A stretch of DNA of 57,751 nt, the filler included, from Sphacelaria rigidula (Eukaryota): NCBI GenBank assembly GCA_964200075.2. It is 8 parts of 8 records of this genome, joined end to end, with 100 filler letters (N's around TTAATTAATTAA, not from the genome) between each part and the next. Parts side by side here need not be neighbours in the genome. Positions count along the whole stretch, not along the records: positions 28,928 to 36,058 come from CAXNAA020016331.1; 7 more parts are not named here. One strand, given 5' to 3'. The notes under the pieces are model-generated. The model searched no databases, was not told where the DNA came from, and saw nothing but the letters and a program-made list of their open reading frames with translations. The position numbers were made by a program, and so were the translations under genes. The stretch's first letter is position 1, and each line of letters begins with the position of its first letter. Positions 7,133 through 43,389 of this stretch are shown here, piece after piece.

Positions 7133-7232
7133 NNNNNNNNNNNNNNNNNNNNNNNNNNNNNNNNNNNNNNNNNNNNTTAATTAATTAANNNNNNNNNNNN
7201 NNNNNNNNNNNNNNNNNNNNNNNNNNNNNNNN
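7133..7232. other. Artificial contig linker
   Basis: N44-TTAATTAATTAA-N44; the 12-mer has stops in all six frames. Confidence 0.99.
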
Positions 7233-9254: not shown

Positions 9255-12200
9255 CATGTTTGATCTACAAGCCTCCCTTACTCAGTACAGCCGCAGGGCA
9301 GCCATAGGAGCAGAGCGTAGTGATGGCCCAGGGTAGACCACGGTAAGGGCAGCAACGGATCAAGAAGGGACTCCGCGGCGTGGGGCCGCGGCTAAACAGC
9401 CCTAACTTATGACAGTAGCAAACGCGATGACAACGCGTCACAGAATCCAGGGTCTACGAGCAGACCCGCACAGAGTATATCTTGCAACGCCTCTGAGCTT
9501 CATCACACTACTGTATGTTGAACAAGACAACACACACGCAAGTCCATTTACAAAGTAAAGCACTAAATGGTACGCACGCGTAGACTTTCATCTACAAACG
9601 GAACAAGGACAGAATGCCAGAAAATCCGGAAAAAGGGGAGGGAAAACACAGTTGCGGCATAGCATCGCGGCAACTGCTCTGGTCGAACGTAGATCCAAGT
9701 GAGCTCCACATCTTTGTTCAAGTCCGTCCCGACACATCCGTCGCGTATAGCGAGAGTGGCATCCCGCCCGTTTCCTTGACAGGGCGTTTGAAGTGGCAAA
9801 CCTGCCTTGAAAAAGGCGTGCAGCGTGGAGTACAATGCGATGGGGGGGCTACGCAGCAATAGGGAAATAAAAGCCGGGGTGCAGCCGATGTTTAGGTTTG
9901 GTGTGCCCGAAGTGCGAATTCAAAACCTCTGCGGGGGTGGGTACTAGCCCATCCAAGACGACACTCAGGGCAAGGAGCCAAGGGTCGATGGGGAGAACTT
10001 GTCGTTCAGCGCGGCGGATCAACTATCACGTGATATGAGCGAAAACGTAGTGCCAAGTGAAAAAACAAACAAAAAATTCGTCAGAGCGTAATACCCAACT
10101 CAAAGCAATCGTCCGGCGAAAATATGGCCTACAACTAGGGCGGTATAAGTGGTCATTTCCGGTGGAACACTGGACCACGCCCAACGGAACGTCACAAGAG
10201 AACACACCTGTGTCGCCAGCTGACCAGGCTGCGCCACGGGATAGGGGGAGAACAAATGACGAACACATCCAGATGAGTTGTCGAAATGCAGTTACTCACC
10301 TCGACCTCAAACAGTCGTCGGGCATGAATACGGCCTACATCAAGGGCGGTATAAACAGCAGTACATGGTGTAACCAAGGACCCGTGCAACAAGACGATGT
10401 AAGGGAGACCCGTGCGGCGAGCTCTCTTGGCTGGCGGCAGGGGGTTGAGCAGTGACAACAACAAACACATCCAGAAAACGAGTCATCAAAATTCCAAACA
10501 TGCGGGAGGCTGGACAAAATCTACAGTCCTCTCGTCGCCTAAAGAAACCTCGAAGACAAGAAGAAAAAGAAGCACTTGATGCTCAGGGGACACGGACAGA
10601 GATGCGACAGCGACAAGAAATATGACTACGGTTACTGGAAATGGAATAACCAAGAAGGTGAACTCAGCACAAAGAAACACGGTACCAACACCTGTGGGGG
10701 GCTACAATGCAGCGAAAAGGGGGGGGCTACGATCTGATATCTGACCAGAGCGCATCAGGGTTTTGAAATCCTCCAAGGTGAGCTGGGCGCTCGCCGCATT
10801 ACCGAGGGATGCGGATTAGGGTTCTGAAATCCTCCAAGGTGAGCTCGGCGCTCGCCGCATTACCGAGGGATGCGGACGGCGTGTCGTAGCAACTCAAATA
10901 TAGGCTTACGATACAACTGGTGTTGGGGGAGGGTACGATCGGATACCTGACCAGATCGGGGGCGTGGGTGCTGGGAAGCAGCCAGGGTAGCGGCGGATGG
11001 AAGGGGCATAGTGGGCCGTGTCCGAAGGCGTTTCTTCTACAAGAGAAAATGTTCGATCACGGGTATATTTCCGTCGTACAGCAAAAGAATACACTTTGCA
11101 CTGATAAAGGGGGACATGTGCACTAGAAAACCCTGCGCGGTTACGGAACCAGCTCTCTCTCCTTGACAAGGGACGGGGACCATCTGATACTAAAAGGGGA
11201 AAACTCAATCGGGCCGGACTGAAGGCATGTCAATTATCGTGGGGTGGTCATGCAAAACTCGTGGGCTTCCATCCGAGGGCAAGTTTTGTCGCTAAAACCA
11301 TAATACTCCAGAGGGGAGTCATCTGTAGGTACAGGAAAAGGTTGGTCAGGCCGGACTGAAGTGATGTGGGCAAACATCGGGAAAGGCCAACTGTGGACCT
11401 ACATCCAAAGCCCAATTTCTTTGCGGAAGGCCATCGTGGTCGTGGGCTTACTTCCGTCAACTGCTTGTGGAAGGCCAACGAGGTTGTGGTCTTACATCCG
11501 AAGGCGAAGTTGTAGTAGTACCTTGACAGAAAACAAAAATACATACACCATGACAAGGAAATCGAGGGGCGCGGCGTTGTCCTAGAATGGCGGAAATCAA
11601 CTACTGTCGACTCGAATCGGTTGTGCCAACGTCAACAACGCGACGTACGGTATTTATGCGCGTGCTGTCACAGGGGCGCTATTGTTTCCACGACTAACGG
11701 TTTAGGTTCCCATACCTCAGAACCATGCTGCGCAGTGGGGTACCGCAGCATACAAAAGGGGCGCCCGGGGGGGAGGGGGGGGTTTGCGCATCTACTAATA
11801 TCTGGTGTGCTCGCCGAGGTACAGCGGGGGGGTTGAGGACAGCATAAGCCGTCGAAACCAACTTCGTCGAAACCAACTTGCAACCACCACAAATGTAGGA
11901 ATGACCGGCGGGCACACAGTTTGCACAGGGCACAATGGCGCGTGCGATACCCTGTTCGAAAGCAGAGTCGACACACTGTAGTGAGATAGAGTTACGGATG
12001 GCTACATGCAGGTGCACAGAGTCACGGTTGACTACATGCACGAGGCGGAACTTGGACGCAGTTTCGGCCAAATCGACGCGTGGTCGGGAAACCAACAAAC
12101 TGCGTCACCATGGCACTCACGCGGATGTAACAAGCGGGAAGAGGACCAAGGGCAGCTACGGCAAATAGCTCACAGCTACCAGCAGTGTACCAAGGGAAAC

Positions 12201-14364
12201 GTACAGCAGTCTTCACTACCAGTGTACAGTACAACCGAGCCCCGAGTGAGCTGACGCCCGTGACTATCCGAAAGCACAAGGGAGCCTCAGTAAATACAAG
12301 TAAAAGAACGCGGAAAAAAAAAAAGCGAGTTACTAACAACTGCTTGAGCAGCAAAACACAACGCCAAGCAACACATGAACTTCCTAACCAAGCAGAACAA
12401 GGTCCGTTTATCGATCTATATCACACTGGCGTACGACGAATTGGCCGTGTTTTGCTTGGTTTTTCAGTAGCCCGCGCGTCTTCTCATAGCCTTGCCGCGT
12501 TGTCAAGTTGTCCCTTACTGTAGCCCTTTGCTGCTCCTCACTTTTGGTTCATCTGTATTTTGACCCCCCGGTTAGGAGCAGTTCCAACAGTCCTTCGTTT
12601 TCATTTAGCTTTAGAGTGCTTTTCTTTCCCAGTCAATCAGTGTGCCTCCCTGCATTTGTTTCCGCTACATTTCCGCTGCAGCAGCAACGATTGCAACCTG
12701 CCCTTTGCCCCTCTCTTGTTTGGGTCGCTTCTTTTGTCTGGCGACACCCTTGTTTGGTAGTGCCGTTGTGCTGTTGCCATCGTCCTTTTCAACCCGCTCA
12801 ACGTTCGGTCCACTGGGGTGCTGTACAACCTTCACGAACAGTTGAACATATCCCTTACTGAACCGATACAGAACACGCCGCTTCTCTCTTACGGTGACAT
12901 CGACTATACCTTTTCTCCTTGAGAACGTCGCCACTTGTGTGCCGCTGCTGTGCTTATAGTGTGGTGTCCTTTTACTTTTGACACTGACTACTTGAGTGTA
13001 TTCATACTTTTCTGCACGACTATTTGCGTTGCCAGCTTTACCGCGCAACTGTTCAGGTCGTCGCGCTTGCCGCCCCAGCTGTGTAGAGTACTGTCGCACA
13101 CACTAATTGTTCTTCCGCGCGATCATCTGCACCAACCTACTCGATATATTCGGTGCTATCATCTCTCGCCGCACCTCTCCCCAGGTTTTCTATCACACAC
13201 CGCCCTGCTACTCCATTTTTCGCTGGGTGAGCACTACGTGGTCAATTTTTCACCTTCGGGTCGTGCATTTCCCAACGCGCTCTTCATTTTTTGTGCGAGC
13301 ACTGGTACATACATATATATATTATCTTTCGCGCGGGTACTACACGCTTCTCTTTTCCTTTTAGCCTTAGCCAGCGTGTTCCATTGTTTCCCCTCTGGTG
13401 CTCCACCCCCTGGATCCCTCTACATTTCCCTGAATTCTTGTTCGAAAGTTTTCGCATTTTCTGCAAGCCTTTCCGCTTGGCACCTGACCTGCACCAACAA
13501 CTCGTGTTTCAGTCGACTGCTACAGCGGTCCTCTCTTGAACCCCTGCACTTCAGTTCTCTGTTTCACACTTTCGTAGCCGCACTTTTTATCCTCTTTCTG
13601 TCTGGACTTTCACAGAGCTTTACACGTCGCCACCCTTTTTAGCAACGTATTCTACCTTAGTATTGGTGCCCTCTTCGGCGGTCTCGAGTAGTTTTTTTGT
13701 ACACCTCCTGTGTGCGGTATTTTTACTTGCCCCACTGCAATACCCTTCTCGAGCGTGTGCCTGATCACTACGTATACCTGTCATCTTTGCCGTGCGCAGC
13801 GCGCTCGTAGGACATTTTGTCCAAGTGTCTCCCTCCTTTCCCAGTCGCCTCATTGCTAGTTTTACCCTCGCATCCAACCCCTCGTGCGACCACTATTAGG
13901 TTTCTCTCGGTATATCTGTGAGCTTGTTCCCTTGCGACTATTTACGCCTTGGTACACTCTCCGCGCGCCCACTCTACTTCCCCATATACAGTTTTCTCTG
14001 GAGGTGTCTTATTTCCGCCGCAGATTCTCCCTTTTTGGCGCTTAATCAGCTCTACCTTTTTGCGCTGCTGTTTGCCTTTTAAGACTCGGAATTGCCGCAA
14101 TTACACTGTTTGTTATTTATTATCACAACAGTCTACTCTAGTTTGGTATAACTCCGTTTATAAAATCCTGTAGTCCTTACTGCTTAATTTTTCCTGTTTT
14201 TCGGTACTTACCATCTCCTGCCGAGTTTACACTACCTCTTATTATTATTATCCCACAACCTTTATACTCTGGTATCTGACGTCTATTTCTACTTCTTCAC
14301 CTTAATATGAAACAACAGCAGAAAATAACTTTCCCCTCGGTATTGCCTACTTACGAATCTTTAC
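9255..14364. mobile_element. Probable heavily decayed retroelement-derived sequence (unclassified)
   Basis: No splice-compatible exons found; strong strand-asymmetric composition switching near 12400; many broken coding-like stretches. Minus-strand ~13620-13900 (SGRT.../LDARVKLAMRRLGKEGDTWTKCPTSALRTAKMT) weakly recalls the integrase NG-x-x-ER...W...LP-x-AL region. Confidence 0.3.
10757..10876 (+). repeat. Tandem duplication, 2 x 61 bp
   Basis: agggtt(t/c)tgaaatcctccaaggtgagct(g/c)ggcgctcgccgcattaccgagggatgcgga starts at 10757 and 10818, with 2 mismatches. Confidence 0.95.
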
Positions 14365-14464
14365 NNNNNNNNNNNNNNNNNNNNNNNNNNNNNNNNNNNN
14401 NNNNNNNNTTAATTAATTAANNNNNNNNNNNNNNNNNNNNNNNNNNNNNNNNNNNNNNNNNNNN
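14365..14464. other. Artificial contig linker
   Basis: N44-TTAATTAATTAA-N44. Confidence 0.99.
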
Positions 14465-21596: not shown

Positions 21597-21696
21597 NNNN
21601 NNNNNNNNNNNNNNNNNNNNNNNNNNNNNNNNNNNNNNNNTTAATTAATTAANNNNNNNNNNNNNNNNNNNNNNNNNNNNNNNNNNNNNNNNNNNN
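21597..21696. other. Artificial contig linker
   Basis: N44-TTAATTAATTAA-N44. Confidence 0.99.
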
Positions 21697-28827: not shown

Positions 28828-28927
28828 NNNNNNNNNNNNNNNNNNNNNNNNNNNNNNNNNNNNNNNNNNNNTTAATTAATTAANNNNNNNNNNNNNNNNN
28901 NNNNNNNNNNNNNNNNNNNNNNNNNNN
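28828..28927. other. Artificial contig linker
   Basis: N44-TTAATTAATTAA-N44. Confidence 0.99.
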
Positions 28928-29649
28928 GGGAACTACCAGCTTCTCGTTGTGCTCGGCTTTTCCCTTTTCGATTTACGTGAAGATTTCGCCTTCCAAAGCC
29001 ATGCACTTTTGGGGGGGGGGCTATCGTAGAAAGTGTCGTACTTGGAACTGTCAGGTCATCTAAAGATCCAGTTATCAGTGTTTATTCTTTAATCCAGTAA
29101 CAACCATTGTTTCCAACCATTGCGTACACTCTCCTGTCTTTTCATCCGAAGATGAAGGCGCATATTTGTTTTTAGGAAATCCGGTCAAATGGACCGGGGA
29201 CCTCTCCTGGGAAGGACAACGCCGAGCAAAAAAGTGTTTATGGTCACGCCCGTGCGGATATGGGGCTATTTTTCCCCAAACCGAAGATATTGTGTTTTCA
29301 TGAAGTCTCCGAAGGTACGCCAAACGTCGAAAATTGTAGTCACCTTTTTTCGTTGAAAAAGTCGAACGAATGTGACCCCTGGATCCTTTTGATTGCGCCG
29401 CAATAGAATCATTGCTCAATCCCTTGTGCAAGTCAACATGAGCATGGAATACACGACACACATCATCCTACACCGGTCGTAATGTATGCACAAGAGCAAT
29501 CAGAGCCGCGGGGAATGTTGTGCGCTGGTACAGTAAGATGTCGGCAATGATGCCCTTGCTTTGAGCTGTCCAGAAGTCATAGAAATGTGTTTTTTTTTCC
29601 TTCTTGTGCAAAACAGGCAGTGCTGCTGCAAAAGACGGTGCAGCACACT

Positions 29650-29842
29650 AAGGCCGTGTCTTCGCACATAACCTTTCGATCGAAAAAGTGCAGCGGAAAA
29701 CAAATATTCCCATCTGATAAGTCGTGATTTCAACCATCTCTAAAATAAACTACGATGGTTGGAATCACGACCTACCAGATCGGAGTTTTCGTTTTCCACC
29801 GCATATTTTTGATAAAAAAACAGTGTGCTACGACACGTCCTA
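29650..29842. repeat. Imperfect ~190-nt inverted repeat (hairpin)
   Basis: Core atctgataagtcgtgatttcaaccatc / gatggttggaatcacgacctaccagat around a 15-nt loop; outer ggccgtgtc..gcaca / tgtgc..gacacgtcc. Confidence 0.75.
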
Positions 29843-30786
29843 ATTACAGTACATTTGAAACTCTACAGTCGGTATTTCAACCCCAAGACAGTTGTAACGT
29901 CTATAGTTAGTGCCCACGCGGATTACCGTGGCTGGCGAAGGAGTAGATGGATTCCAGATAACACAAGCCTTGGGTATGTGTAGCTGAGCGGTGGACTGGG
30001 CTCGGAGCTATTATTACGCGTACGCTGAAGCTCTCTGTACGTGTCGTAAGGCTGCACAGGGACAACGTGGGATCCTGACCGCTACTGTATGCGTTCATGT
30101 CCCTCGCACCCCGATGTTACATGCCACCCATTGCGCTCTAAATGAAACAAACTATCCGGTGCCGGGACCCATTTTTCAGTGCACAGCTGAAAAGTGGCGA
30201 GCTTCACAAATGTTGGTATCTGGTTGACGTAGCCCCTTCCAGTAACGCTAGACTTGTTCAAATGGCGGTGGTCGTGGTTGGGTGTGCAGTGCTGTTGAAT
30301 TTGGAGCATGCATACCTCCACCGCTCATAATAGAGAGTGCCCCCTGCGCCCATAGCAACGTGCACGATCGAAAAGTGATGGACCCCCCCCCCCTCTCGAG
30401 AAGAATAAAACATCTCCCCTGGTGCGACTGTTTCGTTTCATCAACAAAGCGGTCTAACTCCTAAAAACATTGAAAAAAAATGTCCCCTAGGCATGGTCGA
30501 TTCGCACCTCTCCTCGAAAGTTCAGGTCTCAACTCTTTTAGCAGCAGCGCGGTACCATAGCGTACGGTTGACATGATGTTACACAGTGTAACATGAAGAC
30601 ATGCAGGCGGGGCGCCAGTAATGTCTTGAGTGCACCAAGACTTCCTTCAAGCAAGGCAGAAGGTGTGTTGCAGGCGTCCATCGCAGCAGTCGTGATAGCC
30701 AGCGTGCGCCGCTTACTTGCACATGACAGGACAGTATGTGCATCGCCGTCGCCCATTTAGTATACCAAGACGTGTACCCAATAGTT

Positions 30787-31043
30787 CACACGTCGGACAG
30801 CTTATGAGCTACCTGAATATTACTTTTTATTAGTGTACTGATGCGGACCACGAGCTAGCTCATGTGGCCGCTTTCCCCATATTTGCTCCCCACAGCACTG
30901 GACACCGAGCCCGCGGAGTAGTGTAAAGGTAGCGCTTTTGCTTCTCAGGCCCTGCTGACACGTAATTTGTGTTTTTGGATGAGGGATCTGAGAGTCCCGT
31001 TCGATTGGATATTTTGGGTAGCTCATGAGCTGTCCGACGTGTG
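30787..31043. mobile_element. MITE-like element with ~35-bp TIRs
   Basis: Left CACACGTCGGACAGCTTATGAGCTACCTGAATAT; reverse complement of right end CACACGTCGGACAGCTCATGAGCTACCCAAAATAT. Confidence 0.85.
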
Positions 31044-32964
31044 CAAATGTTTGGTCCGAAAAAGCGGTGAGGGGTCCTCACCATTTTCCATACAAACACT
31101 CAACATCCACCTGTCCGGATAGATGAGCGTGTTGTACTACTTGAAGAACAAATTTGAAGCCAAAACTGACCATAGGTAATATTAGGCGATGTGGGAGGGA
31201 CTGAGGGTCAACGGGACATCAGGAAAATTCGGATGTACGACTCCAATCAACTGTTCGTATATGTTCACGGCACCGCCTCGTTAGTGGCGTTACAAGACAG
31301 CGTGTGAGTTGCAGACAGGAAATCGCATGCTGACCCTGGGCAAAACGGGAAATGTGGTATTATCCATTTAAAAACAGATTCGGATGCGATATATGTTATA
31401 CTCCAAAACACAAAACGCGAAATCTTCGCGGGCCGTGGGGATTTGTTGCAACCGAACGGGAAACAAGAGCATATTACTCGAACATGTGTCGGGCATCGCT
31501 GTGGGTGCTTCGTATACCAATTCGCCAATATCATCTTGCAATCCAGAGAACGGGAAAATACTGGAGGGCATAATACCAGGGCTTGTCACGGGAAAAAAAC
31601 GCCCTCTCTGTCTATTTGGCGATGCGAGCACGGTCCCGTCTCCTGTCGTCTTTTTCTTGACAGGAAAACGTTGCCGTCCCGATCCGTCCTCACGGGGGAA
31701 TTCCCGTCCAATCTGACAAGAACTTGAGTGCATGTCAACGATATATGTGTTCTGGGATTTTTTTTTTTTGCATCCTGCGACTCCTTCCACAACCCACTCC
31801 GAACTCAAACTTCACATGAAACGACGTACGGTCGCAAATTATGGAGACGAAGACTTGTGACGGGACTTCGGGATCGGACCATTCCCGTGAATATGAGATG
31901 GTCTAACAACCGTTGTAATATGCTGTGCCTCCGACACCGGTGTTGGATTTCTTCGTGAACGTGTCCGAGCATCGCTGTACATGATTCATCTTTATCGTTC
32001 TTGTTCAGCGGGGGTCACACTCATATTACCGCAAGCATCCCGTCCCGTCAGTCCTCGAAATTCCCGTCCTGTTCCGGCATTGTTGGCGACGGAGGAACAG
32101 CTCCCGCCCTGTCGTTTGTTGACGAGAGGAAAACGGGCCCGTCCCGGAGCCCGGTGGCAAGTCCTGCATGATGTTGTCGTAAGTAGAATACAGATCATAT
32201 GCACGACTTGTGTCGAGTGCTGCAAATCCATCCATTGTTCCGGCAACAGCGCGCGCGCTTGTGCGGAACAGAGGTCTCGGAATGCTTGGGTATCCGTCGA
32301 AAATGGATGTGCAAAATAGTTCGCACTGTACGTGCACTACACAATTGCACAATGTTTCGAATCCGCTCAGCCTCCGCCGTCCTTTCCCCGGTGTCTAGAA
32401 AATAAAAGTGGTCGACATCTCCTCACCAGCACGTGACAAAGGCGGGCGAAACAGTGGGCCATCGAAGAGTCGTTTTCCACTCAAAGTATGTATTGCAAAA
32501 AGCGCGGACGGCACGTACGCGATATAAGTGTACGACGAGTCGAACCCTAACCCTGCCGCCGCTCTTGCCACCCTTCCACTGCCCCCCAACATCCCCCCCC
32601 CCCCGCCGCGCCGTCAAACACACTCCCCCGATGGGATTGGCGTCGGTTGGCAACGACGCTGTAAAGCACGCCACTCACTGCGTAAGGTAGTCAACCAGGC
32701 TACCGTTTTTTTGTGCTTGTGTTTTCTTTTGCGGTAGCCATGATGGTGGTCGAGATATATCGTTTTGTGCGGGGTGGGAGAACCTCAACTCCGCGCAAAG
32801 GGGGTGGTCAGACATACCACGTAGTGTTACATGGTGAAACACCCGTGAAGCAGTGTGGAACCCGGGGCTGTCTCCGGAAACGGCGAAACCAGAAAAGAAA
32901 GCAACTCAATGAAGGCTGTCATCCGTAAGCAAGATAACCAAGTACGCTTCGGGCCGAATAGTAT

Positions 32965-33150
32965 TAGCAGGATGCAGCTCATCGGTCATGCGACTCGCGG
33001 AACACATCACGGCGCTTCGCGCTTGGTGATTGATTGTGAACCTGGTCCGGCAAATACCCGTCGTGCTCCGTGCTGGCTTTGTTGGAATGCGACGTCAATT
33101 ATCTAATGGCTACGGCATGCAAGATGATGAATGTCCCCCCCCCCCCTCCG
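32965..33150 (+). repeat. R1 family full-length copy
   Basis: Starts tagcaggatgcagctc (same 5' end as the 47461-47655 copy) and ends caagatgatgaatgt-polyC. Confidence 0.9.
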
Positions 33151-33679
33151 ACGAACAGACGGATTGAAGTATGTAACAATTACTGCCGCGGGCATACCAG
33201 GCAGTGGCTTCGAACGAGAAGGCGACTATTGCACGAAAGCTTCTGCCGCCGCCCCCCGAAAACCAGGAAGCAACGCAAACATATTCTAACCCGTCCAACG
33301 GAATGGAATAACTTGGGGTTCACGAAGAAAGCTGCCATGATATCACGGATTGTTTAGGCTCTAGTCTCCTTCCATCCCTTGTCCTTACCCGGGATAAGTT
33401 CGTGCTTTCAGGGGATCGTTCTGTGTCTCCTCCGGTATGCACTTGGCTTACTCTTTATGTTACAAAGCGCTGGGTTAGCACTCCTGCAGCCTCTCGGCTT
33501 TTATGGAATTCCCAACTTGTGCATGTGGGCCATGAAGGTTGGACAGCCTGAAGTTCATAACAACGCGACAGCAGCACACTGTGATCAGATTGACGGATGG
33601 TCCGGTTACACTGTCTTTTTCTGTCCCTGTTTTGTTCACAGAACGTGACTACTTGTCTCAGTTTTTTCAAGGCTGTGCA

Positions 33680-33811
33680 ATGGCATCCCCGGGCGTCGTG
33701 GGCAGTCCGGTCCAGGTGAGATCCGAGAATCTCGCGTCTTTGAAGAGTTTTGGTGTATGCAACGTAGAGGCGTACTGTTGAGCGGTATGCGCGAGAATGA
33801 ACAAGAAGCAC
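33680..33811 (+). pseudogene. Candidate upstream exon of the NB-ARC gene, with an in-frame TGA
   Basis: ATG at 33680 reads MASPGVVGSPVQVRSENLASLKSFGVCNVEAYC*AVCARMNKKH|gtgagg; the phase-0 donor matches the phase-0 acceptor at 34135; TGA at 33779-33781. Confidence 0.35.
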
Positions 33812-34134
33812 GTGAGGACGTGGATATCATGAGTAGTACACTGAAATACGCTTTTGGGCAATGCCAGTGGAGAAAGGTGGAGTCGTTAGTAAGAAAGTGT
33901 GGAAGAGACTGAAATTCACTAAACATGTGGATGAGGAACAACACCATGCGAAACACCGGGAAATGCGTATATCGTGCATGAAGGCTATGCCTTGAGTCAC
34001 ATTTGCTTGAGACTGCAGCTCTGTGCATGCGCCCAGCATTCAGCTACCGAGTTTCATTTTCGAAACATAGAGGGGGCGATTTGCGTCTGACATCCCGTCT
34101 ACTGAATGTCGGGTGATATTATCTCGTCCGTTAG

Positions 34135-35864
34135 GCACTGGATAAGACGAAGAAGGTCATCGAAGAGAATAGGCCGTGGTACCAAGCTGTCCTCCTTCGG
34201 GCGGAAACGGCAGAAGCTGCGGCCGGAGAGACTGCCACCGAGGTGGTAATCGAGGGGTTCCGTGTACTGGTGAATGCGGCTAACGTGGACGCTGTGAAGC
34301 CCGCTTTTGTTGTCCTTCGTGCTCTGTTCGAGGCTGTGAAAGGAGCCACCGCTGCCCGGGAGGCACTGCTAGACCTCCTGAGCTACTGCGTCTTGATCAC
34401 AAGTATCGTACTAGATAATGCCCGTGCGCCGGAGCTTCCTGCACACATCCAGATGGCTTTGCAGCAGTTGCGAGTCGAGATCACCAACATTCATAATACC
34501 GCCAACCACTTCGACGACAAGGCGAGCTGTTCTTGGCCTTGGCGGAGGTTGCGTCTGCACACCAGAGACAGAAGAAGGATCAAGATGCACAGGACGACAC
34601 TCGAGGAAATCCTGGCCGCAGCGACGAGCGCCGCCGCGCTCTCTATAACTGCGGACGCCAGCGCTGTACGCACCATCTTTACCCACTCCTCCACGGCTGG
34701 AGGTATGGCGGAAGTTCCGTATGAAGCGCGGTCGCGACCTTCAAGCTACGTGGAGCGCCCTGCTCTGGTGTCTGGCATCGTATCTGACCTCACGGCAGCA
34801 GATGCTAGCAGTGATCCATACGTACTATTTGGTATGGGGGGAGCGGGCAAGACAATGCTAGCATCTTCAGTCGTTCGCAACCCAGACGTCAGGAAGCATT
34901 TCAAGGGGGGAATCTTCTGGCTTAGCGTAGGACGAACTAGTGAGACTCGACTTTTAGCGCTTCTCGTGGGGCTAGCCGCCAAGGTGATCGCATCGCCCAC
35001 GGCCCCGCACAACTTCAACAGCGAGGACGAAGTAGTTCGGAGCCTGACTACAGCCATTTCAGCAGATGGCCTGCATCGCCTGGTTGTGGTGGACGATGTG
35101 TGGCAGCGTGATGTTGTGGATCTGCTGGTGCCCACAGGAATTCGACTGCTGGTGACTACGCGTGTCCGTGCAGCAATTGCCATGGACGGGGGGTGCACGG
35201 AGGTGGGGAGCATGAGCCAGGTGGAAGCGCGACAGCTGCTAAAGTCGAAGAGCGGAGCAGTGGTACTTCCCGAGAGAGAAGCTGATCAGGTACAAGTACA
35301 ACGGTCATTGGTTCACGATGGAGCGTTTGAGAGGTGCCAGCCACCCTCGTTTGTCGACCGCAAACATGGCCCTGTCCATAGCAATGACTAATGCGATTGC
35401 TAATTTATTGGTTGGCGCAAGATTGTCCCGGTTAACGGAATAAACTCTGTCGCTGTTAAAGTGAGACGGCCAGCGGCGTTGTCTTCGTAGCCGATGTTTT
35501 TAAATAGTGCCGTTATCCGCCCTCTTCCGTCGTGATGTATTCGTCGTAGGTTGCTGAGGAATGCGGGTGGCTAGCGCTGGCCCTAGCTATTGCAGGGTCG
35601 CTCCCGGGTGTTACCAAAAGTCCAGACTCTGCTCTATCGTGGCACCAGCTGCACGTAGATATCAAAGAGAAAAAAACAACGCGCCTAGGCCTGCAGATGA
35701 CCAGAGACATCGCCGACGACAAGTCCAAGACGTCACTGTTTCCCGTGCTGTCCGTGAGCCTTGAAGAGTTGGGTCGAGAGGAGCAGGACATGTTTTTGAG
35801 TCTGGTTGTGCTCGCCCGCGGTGTAGGGGCATCAACCGCTATGCTGGCCACGCTCTGGGAGAAG
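34135..35864 (+). CDS. NB-ARC (Apaf-1/NLR-like STAND ATPase) protein with an N-terminal helical domain; partial, C-terminus off contig
   Basis: Exon 34135-35289 (ttag|ALDKTKK...EREADQ|gtacaa) carries Walker A GMGGAGKT (34831-34854), GGIFWLSVG, Walker B LVVVDDVW (35080-35103) and LLVTTR. It joins in phase 0 to exon 35550-35864 (tag|VAEECGWLALALAIAGS...SLFPVLSVSLEEL...MFLSLVVL...LATLWEK|gtgctg), which has the GLPLAL-like and winged-helix region motifs. Confidence 0.93.
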
Positions 35865-35991
35865 GTGCTGTTCACTCCAAAGCGCCGTTGCATCGGTCAT
35901 ATTATTTTGCACATGCGCATTACCCGTTGATGGTTGCGAGATGGGCGGAACTTCACGAAGCTATGCCCCCCCCCCCTCTCCCCTTATGTTC

Positions 35992-36040
35992 GCCTGGTCC
36001 GGCGAGAACCCGGCGTGCTCCGTCCCGGCTTTGTAGGGGC
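35992..36040 (+). repeat. R1 family fragment in the NB-ARC intron
   Basis: gcctggtccggcgagaacccggcgtgctccgtcccggctttgtagggg. Confidence 0.8.
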
Positions 36041-36058
36041 GGACCCCCGATGGGGTTG

Positions 36059-36158
36059 NNNNNNNNNNNNNNNNNNNNNNNNNNNNNNNNNNNNNNNNNN
36101 NNTTAATTAATTAANNNNNNNNNNNNNNNNNNNNNNNNNNNNNNNNNNNNNNNNNNNN
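36059..36158. other. Artificial contig linker
   Basis: N44-TTAATTAATTAA-N44. Confidence 0.99.
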
Positions 36159-38358
36159 GGCTGGTGTTGCCTCGGGTGAGGCGGTGGTCAAGGCCGAGGC
36201 GATAGACGGGGACTCGACCGTTGCCGGCATCGAGGGGGCACATGACGTGGCCACCTCGCGGCCAGCCGCCCCGGCCATCAACACCGCCCCCATCGCCGCC
36301 GCCGCCGCCGCCGCCGCAGCAGCAGCAGCAGCAGCAGCAGAAGCAGACCCTGACGCCGACATCGCCGACACACTCACCCGGGGCAAGTCTGGTGACAAGG
36401 TCGATGGAGTAGACGAAGGCGGAGATATACTCGACGCCGGCGGAGGCGATGGTGTCGACGGAAGGCCAGACTCTGCGGGGAGAGGAGCAATATTGGGTCC
36501 CGCACGCCAGGGCAGGATATTGGGACTGAACTCCGATGACGTGGCCGTGGTGGGCGAGGAGGTGCCACGCGGGCGTGCAAGTAGCCCGGAGGAGGAAGAT
36601 GCCTGTGACAGAGGCGATGTGGTCGGGTCTTCCGAGAACGTGGATGCACAGCTAGAGCAAACGAATGGAGCGAGGGGAGCGGCTGCTGGTGCTCGTACTA
36701 ATGCCGAACAGGAGGAGAAAGACTCCCTGGGGGGCGGCATCCATGGAGCGACGTCGGCCCAGCGATCAGAGACGGTGGAGGCCGATCGTCCGGTGGGTCG
36801 CGACAAGCAATGGTGGAGACGGCTGATTCTCAGGATGATCGTGATGGCACTATTGGGCGTTGGGGGCGCACTTCTATGCGGCGGAGAAAGGTATGCATAC
36901 GACACGAGCAGTCACTAGTGTGACAGCGGAGAGTGGGCACAGTGACAGGGCGCGATATGCTTTGCGCTACCGAGGTCGCCGCATTTCGCATGGCAGGGCA
37001 CGATATGATGTTTGTTGTGGAAAGATCGTTGGTGCTGTAGTTTTTGTATTGGTTGCAGTGCTGGGTCATCTGGCTTTGGAACAACCGCACACCGTCTCGA
37101 ACGGCTGCCACACCTTGTGTTGTATCTGTGTGTATGCAATGGGTGCGTGTTTCTTCGCATGTCATTGTTGAGTTGGAGCACCGAGAGCTGTGATCCGTAA
37201 CTGTGTTGCTGTTTTCGACAAAATCTTTGTGTTTCCGTCGACCGGAGGACGTGCGTCGCCGTCGTGAATGCTACGTGCCACCGCATGTGATGTGCTGATC
37301 GCTCAGGTCGACGTACCGGGGTAGCACCTTGACGCCGGGGGAAGTGGTTGGGGTCGGGCAACACCTGGAGAGGAAGGGAACGTTCCCATGGATCGGTCGC
37401 GTGTCGGTGACGCAGGGCGGCGGTGTCAGGGCAGCCCGCAAGCTGGGCGGCATCTTCCCTTATGACGCGGTGGGTGCGACGGGCTCGGGTTCTGGAGTGT
37501 TGGTCAGTAGTATATAGTGTGTGTGCCGCGGACGGGCGAGACTGCATGTTTTTCACCGTCGGGAGGGTTTGGAAAGGCTTACTCTGCAGCGATGATGTTC
37601 GCGGTCTAATAACGAATGTTGACGTGTGGCAAGTGCCTGATCACGCCGTCGTCATTTCAGCATGTGTTGTTTTTATCGTTGCCAGTTGAGTTCGGCAGCA
37701 CACACGCGCCACCCTCATATGCTAAATCTAGCGTTTGCAGTCACTATCCGATTGCTGTCGGGGAAAGAGTGATCAGCAGGCTTGTTGCGAAGAACCCCGC
37801 CGCGTCGCCAAATGCGTCACGTTGTTTGCACGCCATGTTTCTTTCCATCGTTAGGCATCTATCGCAGAGGATGTCGGCGAGGAGCAGAGGACGGGAGGCC
37901 TCTGGTGCACAGCCGAGCGCTTCGCGCGCAAGGTAACGGGGCAGCAAGACGCCGAATACGGGCTGTTCATTGACAACGGCCAGCTCGTACTCGGGAGTGG
38001 GAGGTACTGCCGGGTATTTGAGACCCCGGTGACCCGAGGTCTGGCGGATCGCCTCGGCGTGGGGAAGCGCGTGGGTGAGATTCGCGATGCCCGGGGCTCG
38101 TTCGACGACTCGGGTAAGTTCCAGGTGGTGACGCCGAAGGGGGAAGTGCTGTGGCGAGTCACCAGCTCTGCGGAGAAGGGTGGCGGTGGCGGCGGGTGGT
38201 GGAGTTTCGGTGCTGAGGCGAAGGCGAAGACTACCGAAGACACAAAGAGCCCGAAGCAGACAAAGCGCAGGGCGGGTGTAGCTCCTAGAGGTGACGGGCG
38301 GGTCCACGGCGGATTTTTGGGGAAGTGGTGGAGGAGTGGGACACGTAGGGCTTCGTGA
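36159..38358 (+). CDS. 3' part of a single-pass membrane protein with an acidic disordered region, a TM helix and a C-terminal bulb-type (B-) lectin-like domain
   Basis: Exon <36159-36890 (...KQWWRRLILRMIVMALLGVGGALLCGGE-ag|gtatgc), exon 37307-37502 (cag|g-STYRGSTLTPGEVVGVGQHLERKG...GSGVL|gtcagt), exon 37855-38358 (tag|ASIAEDVG...EYGLFIDNGQLVLGSG...DARGSFDDSGKFQVVTPKGEVLWR...RRAS-TGA). Phases 2 and 0 are consistent with no stops. STLxPGExxxxGQxL, DNGQLVL and DSGKFxVxxxxGEVLW resemble B-lectin repeats. Confidence 0.8.
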
Positions 38359-43289: not shown

Positions 43290-43389
43290 NNNNNNNNNNN
43301 NNNNNNNNNNNNNNNNNNNNNNNNNNNNNNNNNTTAATTAATTAANNNNNNNNNNNNNNNNNNNNNNNNNNNNNNNNNNNNNNNNNNNN
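43290..43389. other. Artificial contig linker
   Basis: N44-TTAATTAATTAA-N44. Confidence 0.99.

Follow-up and report, generated by a model that had tools for sequence, protein, structure and literature searches.

A 57,751-nt stretch of DNA from the brown alga Sphacelaria rigidula (GenBank assembly GCA_964200075.2), here called the window, carries what is, judged from its sequence, the 5′ half of a brown-alga NB-ARC-TPR gene of the STAND (signal transduction ATPases with numerous domains) or NLR-like (nucleotide-binding leucine-rich repeat receptor-like) type; the TPR (tetratricopeptide repeat) part is known from a 78%-identical relative. The gene family is known, and the new element that our results suggest is an unannotated, portable N-terminal domain, predicted to form a four-helix bundle and accompanied by MLKL-like pointers. 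Since 2012, NB-ARC-TPR genes of brown algae have stood as the leading candidates for intracellular immune receptors in seaweeds, and the portions of the literature examined propose no output mechanism for them. An excerpt of Zambounis et al. (2012, PMC3341825) puts forward the 24 genes of the Ectocarpus family as immune-receptor candidates for which direct evidence is lacking, an expansion of NB-ARC-TPR genes in brown algae is noted in a passage of the Phaeoexplorer preprint (10.1101/2024.02.19.579948), and an excerpt of Andolfo et al. (2019, PMC7145615) attributes a TPR domain and a “transmembrane signature” to most brown-alga NB proteins.

The gene occupies positions 33680-35864 of the plus strand in three predicted exons, and the part that is present contains neither a stop codon nor a frameshift:

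33680-33715, plus strand: exon 1, 36 nt including the start codon, encoding MASPGVVGSPVQ, with donor GTGAGA
33716-34134, plus strand: intron 1, GT..AG, 419 nt; the proteins of relatives join exon 1 straight to ALEKT
34135-35289, plus strand: exon 2, 385 codons, with the N-terminal helical domain, the linker, and the first part of the NB-ARC
35290-35549, plus strand: intron 2, GT..AG, with in-frame stops after 35391, lying in the gap between tblastn pieces
35550-35864, plus strand: exon 3, 105 codons, the ARC part with the GLPL-like CGWLALAL; donor GT at 35865
35865-36058, plus strand: start of intron 3, cut by the chunk end; the protein is not extended in any frame

Exon 1 and intron 1 were placed as listed because the N-termini of relatives match, the donor reads GTGAGA, and an AG precedes 34135. 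The exon 1 peptide matches the N-termini of P0002 (MVSPVIVGTPVQ), P0049 (MASPAVVGTRVQ), and P0051 (MSSPAVVGTRVQ), all of which begin with M[AVS]SP.VVG..VQ and run directly on into ALEK or ALET. In tblastn searches the same three proteins cover 34135 to 35292 or 35298, where a frame is open from 34135 to 35391 (+), and exon 3 is 86.5% identical to residues 401-504 of P0002. Exon 2 has an alternative donor 6 nt further on (35295), at a junction where P0049 and P0051 read ADQ followed by VAEECG and P0002 reads ADQVQ followed by VAEECG. A first-pass annotation of the sequence had delimited the gene at 34135 and 35864, and both limits proved to be exon boundaries, the one after an AG acceptor and the other before a GT donor; the 36-nt first exon (33680-33715) was missing from it. 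The gene is cut at 36058 because the window consists of unlinked chunks. With the three relatives as queries against the whole window, tblastn found nothing beyond the three exons at E ≤ 0.001 and no TPR exon elsewhere in the window.

Downstream of exon 1, the encoded protein is laid out as follows (pLDDT, predicted local distance difference test):

34135-34284, plus strand: N-terminal extension, ~62 amino acids together with exon 1; three short helices, H2-10, H15-29, and H34-48, pLDDT 65-70
34285-34650, plus strand: four-helix bundle, residues 51-172 of the exon 2 translation, predicted by AlphaFold2
34297-34344, 34357-34419, 34441-34521, and from 34537, plus strand: bundle helices h1, h2, h3, and, after a short connecting helix, h4
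34543-34602, plus strand: basic, conserved start of h4, RRLRLHTRDRRRIKMHRTTL, with the family pattern ++h....RDR..I..H+.+L
34693-34818, plus strand: linker from the bundle to the NB-ARC, with a conserved A.VP..AP.LP..YV.R (consensus of alignments A1 and A3)
34819-35289, plus strand: NB-ARC, nucleotide-binding part, Pfam PF00931
34831-34854, plus strand: P-loop motif GMGGAGKT
35080-35103, plus strand: Walker B motif LVVVDDVW
35146-35163, plus strand: motif LLVTTR (RNBS-B-like TTR)
35562-35585, plus strand: GLPL-like motif CGWLALAL, in exon 3

The 385-residue translation of exon 2 matches Pfam NB-ARC (PF00931) over residues 229-373 with an E value of 1.3e-14 (54.5 bits against a cut-off of 23.5), and what we take to be the P-loop, Walker B (hhhhDD), TTR, and GLPL-like motifs are present in that order. 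An intact NB-ARC with these four motifs had been reported from the sequence, and the motifs lie where they had been placed. Exon 3 alone gave no Pfam match. Among solved structures, the NB-ARC of the family is closest to Apaf-1, both when whole family members were compared with the PDB by phmmer (E 1.3e-13) and when a clade profile (A4) was used (4.9e-24); with P0014 and P0038 as whole queries, PDB phmmer matched only NB-ARC proteins. Based on the Pfam match, the motifs, and the relatives described below, we regard it as confirmed that this brown-algal gene is of the NLR-like NB-ARC type.

The closest relative, P0002 (“unnamed protein product, partial [Sphacelaria rigidula]”), is a protein of 1,226 amino acids with an NB-ARC and matches to many TPR families, and in a word-indexed search it was 78% identical over 98% of the first 190 residues (E 1.7e-78). 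The TPR of this protein bears out one half of an earlier guess that TPR or WD40 exons would lie downstream; WD40 was not what the relative carries. Two further S. rigidula paralogues, P0049 and P0051, are 79-81% identical, so that the best relatives, at 78-81% identity, come from the same alga, and others come from Hapterophycus, Choristocarpus, and Cladosiphon, in keeping with the brown-alga NLR-like gene that the first-pass annotation had recognized. An exhaustive single-sequence HMMER search of 1.84 billion representatives with a 190-residue query showed that the N-terminal ~185 amino acids belong to a family of 37 representatives at E ≤ 0.001, of which 14 reach E ≤ 1e-10 and three E ≤ 1e-30. 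Given the 78%-identical relative and these 37 family representatives, the gene is far beyond what chance would produce. Sources were named for three of the 10 representatives looked up, and all three are brown algae (Hapterophycus canaliculatus, Choristocarpus tenellus, and Cladosiphon okamuranus); the family is conserved across distant brown-alga orders.

AlphaFold2 modeling of residues 1-190 with the family alignment (model 1; pLDDT 80.4, predicted template modeling score [pTM] 0.66) placed helices at residues 2-10, 15-29, 34-48, 55-70, 75-95, 103-129, and 135-186. When residues 49-180 were modeled alone (model 2; pLDDT 88.4, pTM 0.78), the same bundle of four long helices was predicted, with a 4-residue helix (H87-90) between H55-83 and H95-131 where model 1 has a 5-residue break. 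The predicted bundle superposes helix for helix, in an up-down arrangement, on a solved member of the MLKL_N/HeLo-like/RPW8 superfamily. The modeling thereby confirms, as a prediction, a four-helix bundle at the core of the N-terminal domain, and the region of ~110 amino acids that had been singled out as four-helical (34294-34623, beginning VKPAFVV) fits well within it. The extension ahead of the bundle carries the motif PWY[EQ]xxGL (PWYQ at 34174-34185), which is conserved as PWYE.hGL across 28 aligned members, and residues 132-178 have a net charge of +5. In a homo-oligomer prediction with four copies of the 178-residue domain, run without an alignment and without controls, the scores were 0.24 and 0.14, with the mark set at 0.32.

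The partners of the N-terminal domain vary within the family. Pfam matches among the 37 representatives were to NB-ARC in 22, of which two also have TPR, to TIR in two, and to a weak, unrelated family only in one; the remaining 12 have no Pfam family, and many of these are short fragments. TIR_2 was matched in P0035 (E 7e-16), P0036 (1.4e-13), and P0045 (1.7e-13), all over the 28-bit cut-off, P0045 being an additional TIR fusion that came from a profile search, and P0031 is probably another fusion of the N-terminal domain to TIR. A midpoint-rooted FastTree phylogeny of the bundle region, with 42 rows, groups the TIR-fused members in a single clade surrounded by NB-ARC-fused ones; the domain therefore moved between partners. 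Since it also stands ahead of TIR in one clade, it acts like a transferable module, for output or adaptor use, within the immune-type genes of brown algae. Profile searches that looked beyond brown algae for relatives (word-indexed, 8,000 candidates scored each) returned the same family only, with 10 members in the “near” length range and six in the “longer” range, none of which has a precomputed MLKL_N or HeLo annotation.

Strongly hydrophobic 19-mers follow the N-terminal domain in P0011 (229-247 and 266-284), P0008 (216-234), and P0028 (208-226), with Kyte-Doolittle means of 2.0-3.2; in P0011 they lie between the N-terminal domain and the NB-ARC. These segments may correspond to the “transmembrane signature” of PMC7145615 and may also be gene-model artefacts.

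Several pointers connect the N-terminal domain to MLKL. We scanned 43 family members against Pfam, 28 aligned N-terminal domains one by one (E ≤ 10) and 15 further members (E ≤ 1), with HMMER filters that discard most matches above E ~0.1. MLKL_N was the sole family matched by more than one of the 28 (three members; best E 0.0011, 18.9 bits against a cut-off of 27), RPW8 was matched by one (E 2.6e-4, 21.1 bits against 30.4), and fourteen other families were matched once each. The two MLKL_N matches that were located are co-linear with each other (P0014 62-148 on profile positions 10-94 and P0038 86-162 on 41-117). When a profile of the 28 members was compared with PDB sequences, MLKL appeared in eight of 21 rows, human MLKL at E 0.059-0.07 and mouse MLKL (4btf) at 0.39, and human MLKL gave the sole long alignment among these rows (profile positions 93-175, 83 positions, on MLKL 47-127). 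The aligned stretch includes RRLRLHTRDRRRIKMHRTTL and places it on the h4 region of human MLKL. This segment had been singled out earlier as recalling MLKL; the profile alignment, at an E value of 0.06, agrees with that placement and is a weak pointer to homology. A feature search of a protein atlas, in which likeness is scored without alignment or E value, found basidiomycete hypothetical proteins of 142-186 amino acids as the nearest clusters (0.95). The next clusters to which any family is assigned have MLKL_N, in 36% of the proteins at 0.92 and in 22% at 0.89, and those in the second cluster are mostly from Oomycota. Finally, passages of Wojciechowski et al. (2022, PMC9815663) describe a short helix connecting h3 to h4 that human MLKL shares with basidiomycete MLKL-like and HeLo-like domains; according to the same passages, h1 is preceded by an additional N-terminal helix or extension in the Goodbye-like and the basidiomycete MLKL-like domains. 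The short h3-h4 helix is present in model 2, and the closest described layout is the Goodbye-like or basidiomycete MLKL-like variant with an N-terminal extension.

Several results weigh against kinship with known executioner domains and against a sensor-executioner reading. The N-terminal domain encoded in the window has no Pfam match of its own at E ≤ 10, and no family member reaches the curated threshold for MLKL_N or RPW8. An MLKL_N match is lacking in 40 of the 43 members, the 15 further members have none to MLKL_N or RPW8 at E ≤ 1, and HeLo (PF14479), Helo_like_N, Goodbye, and Rx_N (PF18052) are absent among the Pfam matches listed for the 28 and 15 members. The RPW8 match (P0038 78-163 on profile positions 12-89) appears shifted by roughly one helix relative to the structural superposition on the RPW8-like coiled-coil (CC-R) domain of NRG1.1 and may be a match of helical pattern. 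With profile A4, built from 20 full-length proteins of a single clade, MLKL was in none of 41 PDB rows. Foldseek searches of the PDB, which the first-pass annotation had suggested as a check, returned nothing at E ≤ 0.001 for either model; designed helical proteins filled the top rows, and MLKL (6d74) ranked 19th at E 1.2. The predicted h1 begins at residue 55 of exon 2, after the 12 residues of exon 1 and three conserved helices, and is not a free N-terminus. Furthermore, the sensor part is outside the window: the remaining ARC region and the TPR exons, the TPR being known from relatives, lie beyond the end of the chunk. HET-s and HeLo structures were not among the 50 best structural matches listed per search, which is uninformative either way, and a single-sequence PDB phmmer search with the N-terminal domain returned one row, PrrA, at E 0.95. 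Of the MLKL/HeLo/RPW8-like domain that had been proposed, the four-helix bundle therefore stands as a prediction, whereas no profile match is above threshold and none to HeLo is among those listed; we judge kinship of the bundle with the MLKL_N/HeLo-like superfamily to be about evenly balanced. A TNFAIP8-like lipid-binding fold, suggested by the atlas at 0.86-0.87, was dropped, as it had no support from any other tool.

The domain order is an extension of ~62 amino acids, the four-helix bundle, a linker, and the NB-ARC, followed by TPR in the 78%-identical relative. Cast by the first-pass annotation as a self-contained sensor-executioner, such a protein would, by inference from the known workings of Apaf-1 and of the NLRs of plants and fungi, act in the following way. 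The TPR array would bind a ligand, and the NB-ARC switch would exchange nucleotide and oligomerize as in Apaf-1 and plant NLRs, bringing together the N-terminal bundles, which would be the output module. Clustered bundles would then release a helix or expose the basic face of h4, attach to a membrane, and breach it, with death of the infected cell as the outcome; before that, the extension that precedes h1 would need to move, as proposed for fungal Goodbye-like domains. That the output is membrane-directed cell killing of the MLKL_N/HeLo-like/Goodbye-like/RPW8 (CC-R) kind is in our view the likeliest reading, with about even odds of being right. It is conceivable, if somewhat doubtful, that brown algae built their own sensor-executioners, in which a lineage-specific MLKL/HeLo/Goodbye variant with a PWYE extension became fused to NB-ARC-TPR and in a single clade to TIR, with some proteins membrane anchored.

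The domain could instead serve homotypic recruitment, as an adaptor module like the CARD in Apaf-1 or another death-fold, with the oligomer recruiting TIR-fused, short, or membrane-anchored proteins that carry the same domain as the output. It heads three kinds of protein, namely NB-ARC(-TPR) proteins, TIR proteins, and short forms, some with a hydrophobic segment (P0008 and P0028; P0011 has two before its NB-ARC), and the NB-ARC is closest among solved proteins to that of Apaf-1, the N-terminal domain of which is a recruiter; the bundle also fits bundles that bind proteins, Cbl TKB for example, no less well than MLKL. However, the recurring sequence-profile pointers lead only to MLKL_N and RPW8, a death-fold is not among the structural matches listed, and stand-alone partners are not established because short contigs may have yielded truncated gene models for the short forms. 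We consider recruitment unlikely. A bundle that acts like plant coiled-coil domains, being of separate origin or too diverged to be recognized and forming a funnel or calcium channel from its first helices upon oligomerization, appears to us very improbable: the channel-forming helix of plant coiled-coil NLRs is the extreme N-terminus, and here ~62 residues precede h1, no Rx_N is found among the Pfam matches listed, and the NB-ARC resembles that of Apaf-1 more closely than those of plant NLRs.

It is also possible that the immune or death reading is wrong altogether and that the domain is a structural or regulatory helical one without an output role, keeping the NB-ARC inactive or targeting it to a compartment. 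Every likeness to executioner domains is below threshold, and no function has been shown for the brown-alga NB-ARC-TPR proteins, for which direct evidence of immune involvement is stated to be lacking in the excerpt of Zambounis et al. (PMC3341825). Yet the domain is swapped between NB-ARC and TIR, which fits a portable signaling module better than an NB-ARC-specific regulator, and it is conserved across distant brown-alga orders; we think a purely regulatory role decidedly unlikely.

Among described systems, the Ectocarpus NB-ARC-TPR family is likewise brown-algal and multi-copy (here, three S. rigidula paralogues) and has the NB-ARC followed by TPR, as in P0002. It differs in that only NB-ARC and TPR parts, and no N-terminal domain, are described in the excerpt of PMC3341825. 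The N-terminal bundle of MLKL (MLKL_N, PF22215; PDB 4btf, 6ux8, and 6ka4) differs in that the algal scores are below every threshold and ~62 conserved residues precede h1; its partner is a pseudokinase, whereas that of the algal domain is NB-ARC or TIR. Fungal Goodbye-like and basidiomycete MLKL-like NLRs share a four-helix core before a nucleotide-oligomerization domain (NOD) with TPR-type repeats and an extra N-terminal helix or extension, as described in passages of PMC9815663, but no Goodbye or HeLo-like domain is among the Pfam matches listed here, and the lineage is stramenopile, not fungal. For the RPW8/CC-R domains of plant helper NLRs (PF05659; NRG1.1 CC-R, PDB 7l7v), one of 43 members matches, below the cut-off, and the C-terminal sensor is TPR rather than leucine-rich repeats. 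Apaf-1 and CED-4 are the type that the NB-ARC resembles, Apaf-1 being its best match among solved proteins, although Apaf-1 has an N-terminal CARD and C-terminal WD40 instead of a four-helix bundle and TPR. Supplements that may contain domain tables aside, our literature searches turned up no account of the N-terminal domain carried by NB-ARC-TPR proteins of brown algae, of any brown-algal domain resembling MLKL/HeLo, or of the fusions to TIR.

Were the bundle an MLKL/HeLo-type executioner, the combination of “NOD plus four-helix death domain” found in plants, fungi, and animals (in the last as separate proteins) would also exist in stramenopiles, and algal hypersensitive-type cell death could be tested with one small domain; the TIR fusions offer a second testable link to known immune signaling. 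A sensor-executioner would, moreover, extend NLR-triggered death by membrane rupture to a further independently multicellular lineage, with one module linking NLR and TIR signaling. If the likeness is one of fold only, the result is an unannotated, brown-alga-specific N-terminal domain family, useful for annotation and otherwise ordinary.

Sequencing runs gave some cover of the locus. Runs X6-X8, which are only guessed to be RNA, include a 484-base contig identical to 34371-34854, with cover limited to portions of exons 2 and 3; none of their contigs spans an intron, no joints are reported, and no listed run containing the locus is recorded as RNA. In run X1, a 537-base contig on 35064-35598 has 18 differences, clustered at 35098-35148, and probably derives from a paralogue or second allele of the NB-ARC exon; contigs elsewhere are exact. 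Positions 35981-36058, probably a dispersed repeat inside intron 3, form a very high-copy repeat with a poly-C tract, for which summed contig depth is ~3.4e5 in runs X6-X8 and 7.8e6 in X1 and many loose contig ends lie at 35992 and 36038.

The window is made up of eight separate chunks of 7131-7132 bp each, as we deduced from 14 runs of 44 N; this make-up had not been noted in the first-pass annotation. The spacers have the form N44-TTAATTAATTAA-N44, recur every 7231 bases, and mark chunk joints, the flanks of which are not genomic neighbors:

7133-7232, 14365-14464, 21597-21696, 28828-28927, 36059-36158, 43290-43389, and 50521-50620: spacers

The NB-ARC gene sits in the chunk 28928-36058, and DNA past 36159 is unrelated and non-contiguous. 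Upstream of the gene (28928-33679), none of the nine stop-to-stop frames of at least 110 amino acids looked coding. The next chunk begins with an open frame (36159-36918, plus strand), unrelated to the NB-ARC gene, in which a (GCC)n/(GCA)n tract gives a long Ala run, the middle is acidic, and a hydrophobic stretch, RMIVMALLGVGGALLCGG, lies close to the end. In another chunk, at 10001-14000, adjacent 2-kb bins have strong opposite skews, with GC skew going from +0.117 to -0.194 and AT skew from +0.212 to -0.210.

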